From an uncultured archaeon (GTDB lineage Archaea; Asgardarchaeota; Jordiarchaeia; Jordiarchaeales; Jordiarchaeaceae), in the NCBI GenBank assembly GCA_964510585.1, contig CAZECW010000004.1, positions 1 through 32,000 of the forward strand: a DNA stretch of 32,000 bases, written 5' to 3'. Numbering within the stretch: position 1 is the first letter of the stretch; every line of letters starts with the position of its first letter. A model generated the notes under the pieces. The model was not told where the DNA came from, ran no database searches, and saw only the letters and a list, made by a program, of their open reading frames with translations. The position numbers were made by a program, and so were the translations under genes. Shown piece after piece: positions 10,270 through 11,099 of the stretch.

Positions 10270-10421
10270 ATCCCCTCATTTTTTATTAATTGATAATGAT
10301 ATAAGAGATTTTGCACCCTCCTAATTTTGAGTCTGGGCCTTAGCCAATGATTCCGTAGTCCCGTACCTATATTTTTGGAGGGTTCAATAGAGAAAAGGAG
10401 GAATGGTGCGGAGGACGAGAT

Positions 10422-10452
10422 GTGTTCAGGGGGTAGCAGGCTACCACCGCCT
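10422..10452 (-). other. 31-nt BHB tRNA intron, T-loop position 58/59
   Basis: Central helix GUUC/GAAC with 3-nt bulges AA|A and AC|A, plus an internal hairpin GGUAG/CUACC. Removal restores the T-loop TTCAAAT. Confidence 0.9.
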
Positions 10453-10468
10453 TTGAACTCGTGTAGGC

Positions 10469-10498
10469 CTATGTGAACTCCCAGATAACTGGGGGTTT
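10469..10498 (-). other. 30-nt tRNA intron in the variable-arm loop (GUAG|GCC)
   Basis: Central helix GCGU/ACAU (3 of 4 pairs), bulges AG|A and AG|G, internal hairpin CCCAG/CUGGG. Removal restores the Leu variable arm. Confidence 0.82.
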
Positions 10499-10512
10499 CT
10501 ACGCCACAGGAG

Positions 10513-10543
10513 CTCTGATACGCGAGTGATTGGAAATCGCAAA
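10513..10543 (-). other. 31-nt canonical 37/38 BHB tRNA intron
   Basis: Central helix CUGA/UCAG with bulges GG|U and AG|C, closed by the anticodon stem CAGGA/UCCUG. Confidence 0.93.
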
Positions 10544-10560
10544 CCTCAGTCCTGCTCCAT

Positions 10561-10589
10561 GCCAGTCAAATCCCTGAGGGGACGACATT
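10561..10589 (-). other. About 29-nt D-loop tRNA intron (near 20b/21-21/22; boundaries uncertain by 1-2 nt)
   Basis: The insert must be removed to pair the D-stem TCCG/TGGA. Only a relaxed BHB can be drawn (AGGU/ACUG, 3 of 4 pairs). Confidence 0.75.
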
Positions 10590-10647
10590 TGACCTGGCTC
10601 GGAAACCTCCGCACATATATTGACAAAATAGGATTACACTGAACCAG

Positions 10648-10661
10648 TTTTTATAAGTTTC
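10648..10661 (-). promoter_or_regulatory. Candidate BRE/TATA box for tRNA-Leu(GAG)
   Basis: Minus strand reads GAAACTTATAAAAA about 36-49 nt upstream of the mature 5' end. Confidence 0.45.
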
Positions 10662-10882
10662 TATGATAGGTAACGATATGATGCGTTATGCCTGTATTTT
10701 TCGTGTTTTAAGGGGGATAGCATATTATTAAAAAATTTTTGGAACACCATTTTTTAAGGGGAAAGTTCAAAAGGAAAATGTATAAAAATTATAGTGCATA
10801 TCCATTTTGTGTGGTAGAATTCGTCTGAGCGTAACAATTTATTTAGGGTATTTGGAATGTGCAGGGATTTCCGAGTGGTCAA

Positions 10883-10903
10883 TACCCAGCTGTGGTTGGC
10901 TAT
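10883..10903 (+). other. 21-nt D-loop tRNA intron (21/22)
   Basis: Central helix GGUC/GGCU (with G-U pairs) and bulges AA|U and AU|A. Removal restores GGTCAAAGGAG. Confidence 0.82.
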
Positions 10904-10933
10904 AGGAGCTGGGCTTAGGACCCAGTGGCGTAG

Positions 10934-10965
10934 TGGTGTCGGTCTGTTTTGGTGGCGCCGCGTAA
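10934..10965 (+). other. 32-nt BHB intron in the variable-arm loop (GUAG|GCC)
   Basis: Central helix GCGU/GCGU (4 pairs including G-U), bulges AG|U and AA|G, intron helix GGUGUC/GGCGCC. Confidence 0.9.
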
Positions 10966-10982
10966 GCCTTCGCGTGTTCGAA

Positions 10983-11012
10983 AAGAGGCATCAGATTGAT
11001 GCAGCTCGATAG
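10983..11012 (+). other. 30-nt T-loop tRNA intron (59/60)
   Basis: Central helix UUCG/CGAU (3 pairs plus U-U), bulges AA|A and AG|U, internal hairpin GCAUCA/UGAUGC. Removal restores TTCGAAT. Confidence 0.85.
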
Positions 11013-11099
11013 TCACGCTCCCTGCACCAATTTTTAAAAGTGGGTATGTGCTCTGTTTATTTGGACTGTGTAGTCTTTATTTTTTGGGGTTTTTGTTTG

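Follow-up and report, generated by a model that had tools for sequence, protein, structure and literature searches.

In 2021 the stated limit for archaeal tRNA genes was up to three introns (PMC8450103), and tRNA-Glu(UUC) of Pyrobaculum calidifontis, one of the Thermoproteales, is a described gene with three (PMC4390854, PMC8450103). For the complete genome of a Freyarchaeia archaeon, Leu GAG has been tabulated with three introns by tRNAscan-SE and four by R2DT, and Arg(TCT) and Ile2(CAT) are also tabulated there with four (Valentin-Alvarado 2024, PMC11291895, Supplementary Data 4). A preprint of October 2026 describes up to five intervening sequences in one gene, gives 2.0–2.4 per gene for Freyrarchaeaceae/Jordiarchaeaceae, and points out that inserts in the D-arm are often missed by annotators (Goswami et al., bioRxiv 10.64898/2026.10.13.758758).

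We analysed a stretch of 32,000 nucleotides (here called the window) from an Asgard archaeon genome. A first-pass annotation of the window had proposed a cis-encoded tRNA-Leu(GAG) gene with four bulge-helix-bulge (BHB) introns, and this proposal is borne out by the spliced cloverleaf, compact homologues, conservation, the splicing enzymes, the single copy and the assemblies. The annotation also gave up to three introns as the known limit, which was correct for its time (PMC8450103; the tRNAscan-SE 2.0 paper and reviews agree). Its suggestion that four may exceed what is known is out of date, given the genes tabulated in 2024 and the preprint. We are confident that the gene is the sole functional copy of tRNA-Leu(GAG) in a hot-spring Asgard archaeon belonging to the Freyarchaeia/Jordarchaeia genus, with four BHB-type introns that would be cut out by EndA and the exons joined by RtcB. 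What we show directly is how the gene is built, the cloverleaf of its spliced form, exons that are conserved where introns drift, the geometry of the BHBs, the enzymes and the single copy.

Gene anatomy and the predicted spliced tRNA

The gene lies on the minus strand of the window at 10404..10612, with its 5' end at 10612 and its encoded CCA ending at 10404. Read from 10612 to 10404 it begins with GCGGAGG and finishes with CCUCCGC-A-CCA. Its 209 nt consist of five exons and four introns of 29, 31, 30 and 31 nt, so removing the 121 intronic nucleotides leaves an 88-nt tRNA. These are exactly the figures of the first-pass annotation, which had given 209 nt, about 121 of them intronic, and an 88-nt class II product with CCA. 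The introns interrupt the tRNA at 22/23, at 37/38, in the variable-arm loop and at 58/59, and the deleted blocks in gene coordinates are 26–54, 70–100, 115–144 and 161–191.

All of the following parts are on the minus strand. Exon 1 (10588..10612, tRNA positions 1–22) holds the 5' strand of the acceptor stem, U8, the 5' strand of the D-stem and the D-loop, and corresponds to an exact BLAST block, 1–25, of the spliced form. Intron 1 (10559..10587, 29 nt) follows at 22/23, the boundary between D-loop and D-stem, and has an HBh' motif. Exon 2 (10544..10558, positions 23–37) supplies the 3' strand of the D-stem, the 5' strand of the anticodon stem and the anticodon loop through G37, with the anticodon GAG at 10545–10547; in other Asgard genomes this exon is contiguous with exons 1 and 3. 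Intron 2 (10513..10543, 31 nt) is at the canonical 37/38 site and uses the anticodon stem as its outer helix. Exon 3 (10499..10512) runs from position 38 into the variable-arm loop and was placed by ARAGORN on the spliced form together with BLAST of the exon. Intron 3 (10469..10498, 30 nt) sits in the variable-arm loop with a relaxed BHB. Exon 4 (10453..10468) carries the 3' part of the variable arm, the 5' strand of the T-stem and the T-loop through A58. Intron 4 (10422..10452, 31 nt) interrupts the T-loop at 58/59 with an hBHBh' motif, and exon 5 (10404..10421, positions 59–76) completes the gene with the end of the T-loop, the 3' strands of the T-stem and the acceptor stem, A73 and CCA.

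ARAGORN called the spliced 88-mer as tRNA-Leu(gag) at full length. The spliced form has a 7-bp acceptor stem, a 3-bp D-stem with G13.A22, a 5-bp anticodon stem with the loop CU-GAG-GC, and the T-arm ACGAG/UUCAAAU/CUCGU. It has the features of a class II tRNA-Leu, with a 14-nt variable region (GGC/GCC stem), A73 and the anticodon GAG. When we read along the spliced sequence, U8, A14, G18G19, U33, G37, U54U55C56, A58 and the G53-C61 pair were all kept. The unspliced gene was missed by ARAGORN in the window and by Rfam, both at the gathering score and at E<=10 in the 800-nt neighbourhood; the first-pass annotation had warned that standard finders may miss it.

Two other kinds of interrupted gene were considered. 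We rejected a split or permuted tRNA gene because the five exons are colinear, on one strand and within 209 nt. Group I and group II introns have a ribozyme core of hundreds of nucleotides. The inserts here are 29–31 nt and Rfam found no match to them even at E<=10, so we rejected these intron types as well.

Splicing motifs and the position of intron 3

To assign cut sites, we applied the BHB rule: the helix has 4 bp, a bulge of 3 nt comes next, and the cut falls after the second bulge base. Intron 1 gives an HBh' motif with a fully paired central helix (GUCA/UGGC, 4/4), bulges AA|U and AU|G and an inner helix of 4 bp, and the outer helix is absent. Intron 2 gives an hBH motif with central helix CUGA/UCAG (4/4), bulges GG|U and AG|C and an outer helix of 6 bp. 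Intron 4, which carries a 7-bp hairpin, has the hBHBh' arrangement with GUUC/GAAC (4/4), bulges AA|A and AC|A, and flanking helices of 2 bp each. The motif of intron 3 is relaxed: its central helix GCGU/ACAU pairs at three of four positions, with a C.A mismatch, and its flanks are weak. As a background, canonical-class BHBs appear at about 0.5% of boundaries drawn at random from the window or from the shuffled gene, compared with about 15% for relaxed ones. The motifs of introns 1, 2 and 4 belong to the canonical class and are therefore individually significant, whereas the motif of intron 3 on its own is not.

Forming all four BHBs together gives -43 kcal/mol, whereas the minimum-free-energy fold reaches -87 kcal/mol and lacks the BHBs of introns 1, 3 and 4. 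For the motifs to form, proteins would therefore have to bind or the RNA would have to fold during transcription. We regard the low score of the BHB fold as a caveat and not as counter-evidence to splicing. Being local and free of overlap, the four motifs can coexist on one RNA.

The exact cut site of intron 3 is ambiguous, and its placement here is our reading of the sequence. A TAG repeat at this intron allows four pairs of cuts that yield an identical product. A different product would come from the other register, in which the four introns are genuine but intron 3 is cut as 31 nt (gene 112–142, window 10471–10501) and the result is an 87-nt tRNA with a variable-arm loop one base shorter (GGC-GAG-GCC). 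We think this is possible, although it is clearly the less probable of the two. It has a fully paired central helix (GUGG/UCAC, 4/4) and a 2-bp outer helix in the window's genome. In the alignment we read this register as 4/4 in four of five full-length copies from the genus, where the 30-nt register pairs 3/4 in four of the five, and ARAGORN calls the 87-mer as Leu(gag) too. However, the central and outer helices of the 31-nt register take up positions 41–43 of the anticodon stem, which is the outer helix of intron 2. The 87-nt product would also have a variable region one base below that of every compact Asgard tRNA-Leu(GAG) that we examined (all 14 nt), while the 30-nt register matches the 14-nt variable region of the compact genes at 13 positions. 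Further, as we read the sister-family sequence, it has a 4/4 helix only in the 30-nt-type register. In Candidatus Jordarchaeum madagascariense there is a 4/4 helix at the intron 3 site. We favour the 30-nt register by a comfortable though not decisive measure because it reproduces the conserved UGGCGUAGGCCU variable arm; it predicts UGGCGUAGGCCUAC as the junction of exons 3 and 4 in the mature tRNA.

Conservation, copy number and splicing machinery

Several tests of the gene make no use of the BHB motifs. A pattern search among 201 Asgard genomes found tRNA-Leu(GAG) genes that are uninterrupted from the D-loop to the variable arm, one family of which has a single mismatch to the spliced sequence. 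The spliced product aligns without gaps to a fully compact 88-nt Asgard gene, with 72/88 identity. We also aligned the unspliced 209-mer globally to four compact genes, using no BHB information, and obtained insert blocks at 26–54, 69–99, 112–141 and 161–191. Given boundary repeats of 1–3 nt, we take these blocks to be the four proposed inserts.

We compared the gene with orthologues in the GTDB genus of the window, from Candidatus Jordarchaeia archaeon RPF2, Candidatus Freyarchaeota archaeon SQRJ_82 and Candidatus Jordarchaeum madagascariense EB_bin_7. The exons of RPF2 are identical to those of the window gene at 88/88 positions and its introns differ at 11/121, indels included (Fisher p = 0.003). 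The SQRJ_82 exons are likewise 88/88 identical and the introns differ at 20/122, again with indels included (Fisher p = 1.4e-5). Intron divergence in these two sister species is thus 9–16%. Compensatory changes are found in the central helix of intron 1 (GC>GU, UG>UA), the inner helix of intron 4 (GU>CG, GC>AU) and the hairpin of intron 3 (CG>UA, GC>AU). From these comparisons, the exons appear to be under purifying selection while the introns drift with their pairing preserved.

The Ca. J. madagascariense orthologue (locus L007, 1502–1679, minus strand) is missing exactly the insert at 37/38 (CUGAGG|CUUCUG) and keeps the other three. We read it as a natural intron-less allele at the predicted 37/38 junction. 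Its 58/59 intron is common to the Freyarchaeia genome and is unrelated to that of the window gene except for six bases, which make up the central helix and bulge. Across the genus series, intron 2 can be precisely absent, intron 4 replaced in place, and the D-arm intron 13 nt or 29 nt long. This series points to intron loss and in-place replacement inside one genus, with exons that stay frozen while introns drift, vanish or get replaced at the same site.

In both the sister family and a more distant Asgard family, tRNA-Leu(GAG) has a variable-arm-loop intron at the same site or at most 1 nt away. The site is either ancient or was hit repeatedly. The distant family also has a 58/59 intron, and the D-arm introns are at different positions. 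When the four introns plus flanking sequence were compared by BLAST with the whole genome and with one another, nothing rose above chance, and we see no sign of recent copying of these introns between genes. A hot-spring relative (run X5, about 93% identical) reads UC instead of CU at window 10548–10549, which are anticodon-loop positions 32–33, so that U33 would become C. At window 10516, the intron base that pairs here, the same relative has a matching A>G. The two differences may reflect compensation within the central helix of intron 2, or they may come from misalignment next to indels.

The genome, a metagenome-assembled draft, has 217 contigs totalling 3.78 Mb and is 96% complete. The first-pass annotation had allowed that an intact tRNA-Leu(GAG) might lie elsewhere with this copy decayed; we found no second tRNA-Leu(GAG) in the genome with ARAGORN, BLAST of the exons, a search for the compact pattern or a scan for anticodon arms. 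Upstream of the gene there is a TATA-like box, TTATAAAA (10649..10656, minus strand), at -44 to -37 from the mature 5' end, and flank alignment puts it in a block that is kept in all five genus members. We take this box to be a putative promoter, which would imply a leader of about 14 nt. Directly after the CCA is a pyrimidine/T-rich tract, UUCCUCCUUUUCUCU (10389..10403, minus strand), which is kept in sister species and may be the terminator. A divergent tRNA-Leu(TAG) gene lies 248 nt from tRNA-Leu(GAG), at window 10861–11029 on the plus strand. Its 169 nt include three inserts, of 21, 32 and 30 nt, in the D-arm, variable-arm loop and T-loop, and none at 37/38; ARAGORN calls its spliced 86-mer as Leu(tag). 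The two genes have the variable-arm and T-loop intron sites in common.

It is very improbable that the gene is a decaying pseudogene whose inserts are junk that is never removed. The unspliced gene does escape the standard finders, and the lineage does have dead copies, since the published sister genome contains another Leu(GAG)-like copy with a truncated 5' end. Against this, the exons are identical in three species while the introns have diverged, every stem and conserved tRNA position is intact, the upstream promoter block is conserved, and this is the sole tRNA-Leu(GAG) found in a 96%-complete genome. Misassembly, which the first-pass annotation had also named, we consider practically negligible: although the source is a metagenome-assembled draft of 217 contigs, in which a chimeric or mis-joined contig could occur, four separate hot-spring studies yielded contigs of 1–89 kb that run unjoined across the gene, and assemblies of three other species have the same architecture. 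Three of the four hot-spring contigs are letter-identical across the gene, and one of them may be the window's own source. Among JGI metagenome contigs, neither the 25-nt 5' exon nor the 20-nt 3' end had an exact match.

Cutting of relaxed and non-canonical motifs is done by an (alpha-beta)2 EndA with the L1/CSL loop or by an epsilon2 enzyme. The genome has two EndA paralogues (PF01974), on contigs C157 and C126. One is alpha-like, matches the A. pernix EndA chain 3P1Z_B with E = 2.8e-45, and has the Tyr/His/Lys triad as well as a lysine aligned to K44 of the Crenarchaea-specific (L1) loop. The other is beta-like and has no catalytic His. This pair fits an (alpha-beta)2 broad-specificity arrangement, with the subunit assembly a prediction, and enzymes of that type have been reported for Asgard archaea (PMC5829648). 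The ligase RtcB is also present (PF01139, 578 bits). Its gene (contig C58:3702-5036, plus strand) is interrupted within the conserved LPD|AHQGYG motif by a 30-nt in-frame insert that includes a TGA stop. This insert (locus L010, 1561–1590) has a canonical BHB, with CCCG/CGGG and bulges ACA and AAG, and deleting it restores ...VTLPDAHQGYGFPIGG. RtcB, the ligase for BHB splicing, thus itself appears to require BHB splicing.

Taking these parts together, we propose that the conserved TATA promoter would drive a precursor of about 225–240 nt, in which each insert of about 30 nt folds locally with the flanking exon bases into a bulge-helix-bulge motif. A heterotetrameric (alpha-beta)2 EndA, with the broad-specificity loop on its catalytic subunit, would then cut two bases into each 3-nt bulge, and RtcB would ligate the five exons. 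Transcription, the actual cuts and their order are what we infer here. Since no motif overlaps another, the introns would not have to leave in a fixed order. Only after removal of introns 1 and 4 could the D-stem, the T-stem and the elbow between D-loop and T-loop form.

It is also conceivable, but unlikely, that the lineage combines active site-specific intron turnover with feedback from splicing capacity. Such feedback would rest on two points: the only tRNA for CUC/CUU would need four EndA/RtcB cycles, and the RtcB mRNA has a BHB-type intron. If it were true, the decoding of two leucine codons and the supply of the ligase would be gated by splicing capacity.

The tRNA set of the genome and described systems

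In the same search, the Rfam tRNA model found 7 genes above threshold in this genome and 40 in a less interrupted 2.3-Mb Asgard genome. We did an anchored census, which required a 7-bp acceptor stem, U8, G53-UUC, C61 and CCA and was followed by alignment to compact references. It recovered 24 tRNA genes with 50 inserts, 0–4 per gene (mean 2.1), and one gene that is uninterrupted. These counts are a lower bound, as the census passes over genes interrupted in the acceptor stem or the early T-loop and counts adjacent introns as one. No gene in the census is longer than tRNA-Leu(GAG), and in no other were four inserts resolved separately. Insert blocks of 43–63 nt occur in Ser-GGA, Tyr and a 208-nt gene; each block may conceal two adjacent or nested introns, so the maximum in the genome could exceed four. 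Such blocks are in the very long tRNA genes at C209:16414-16621 (minus strand, 208 nt), C18:26649-26821 (plus strand, 173 nt) and minus-strand index 25607–25790 of contig C4 (184 nt). Matching the end sequences of the 38 published Freyarchaeia tRNA genes to this genome was too noisy, because paralogues share ends, and was dropped in favour of the census. The tRNA sets of such genomes are badly under-called.

Our mean of 2.1 inserts per gene compares with about 2.0–2.4 for the interrupted tRNA genes of Freyrarchaeaceae, Jordiarchaeaceae and Atabeyarchaeaceae in the preprint of Goswami et al., which concerns the same lineage and phenomenon. That preprint is a census and does not describe the window gene. 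It leaves open how introns arrive and depart (bioRxiv 10.64898/2026.10.13.758758), and for this question the window gene and its four sister orthologues form a compact natural series.

The Thermoproteales are like the window's genome in having non-canonical BHB sites, an (alpha-beta)2 EndA with the L1 loop and its conserved lysine, and tolerance of the relaxed HBh' form. They are a different phylum, and their reported maximum is three introns per gene. They also have described intron families, whereas we found no related intron copies in the window's genome. The window gene offers strict, HBh' and relaxed motifs on one RNA, which makes it a convenient substrate for an Asgard EndA.

The closest described gene is Freyarchaeia tRNA #24 (SRVP_Freyarchaeota_curated_circular, 1888074–1888267), which is in the same GTDB genus. 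The published coordinates 1888074–1888267 (Leu GAG) and 1887836–1887665 (Leu TAG) delimit exactly those genes in G006, the complete Freyarchaeia genome. A second Leu(GAG)-like copy is found in that genome 830 nt downstream of the annotated one, at G006:C1:1888899-1889092 (about 1464–1657 of locus L005). Its exons are nearer to those of the window gene and its introns are at the same sites, but it has neither the 5' acceptor strand nor the promoter, and it is absent from the published tRNA table. We believe that it is probably a 5'-truncated duplicate; another reading is that its 5' exon is supplied in trans or lies at a distance. A GCGGAGG heptamer about 290 nt upstream of the truncated copy was rejected as evidence for a long intron or split gene, as it is the end of a small ORF and within chance expectation.

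Like the window gene, the annotated Freyarchaeia Leu(GAG) is paired divergently with tRNA-Leu(TAG), has the conserved promoter block and has introns at the same four sites. Unlike it, 17 of the 88 exon positions differ, including covarying pairs in the acceptor stem and T-stem, the D-arm intron is 13 nt instead of 29 nt, and the T-loop intron is unrelated in sequence save for the bases that pair with the exon. From synteny and the promoter we conclude that the window gene is the orthologue of this tabulated four-intron gene, and the four-intron state was already known. The window gene is a well-documented example of that state, not a new kind of gene or a record, and the motif-independent tests argue that a single essential tRNA can carry four introns of the endonuclease type.
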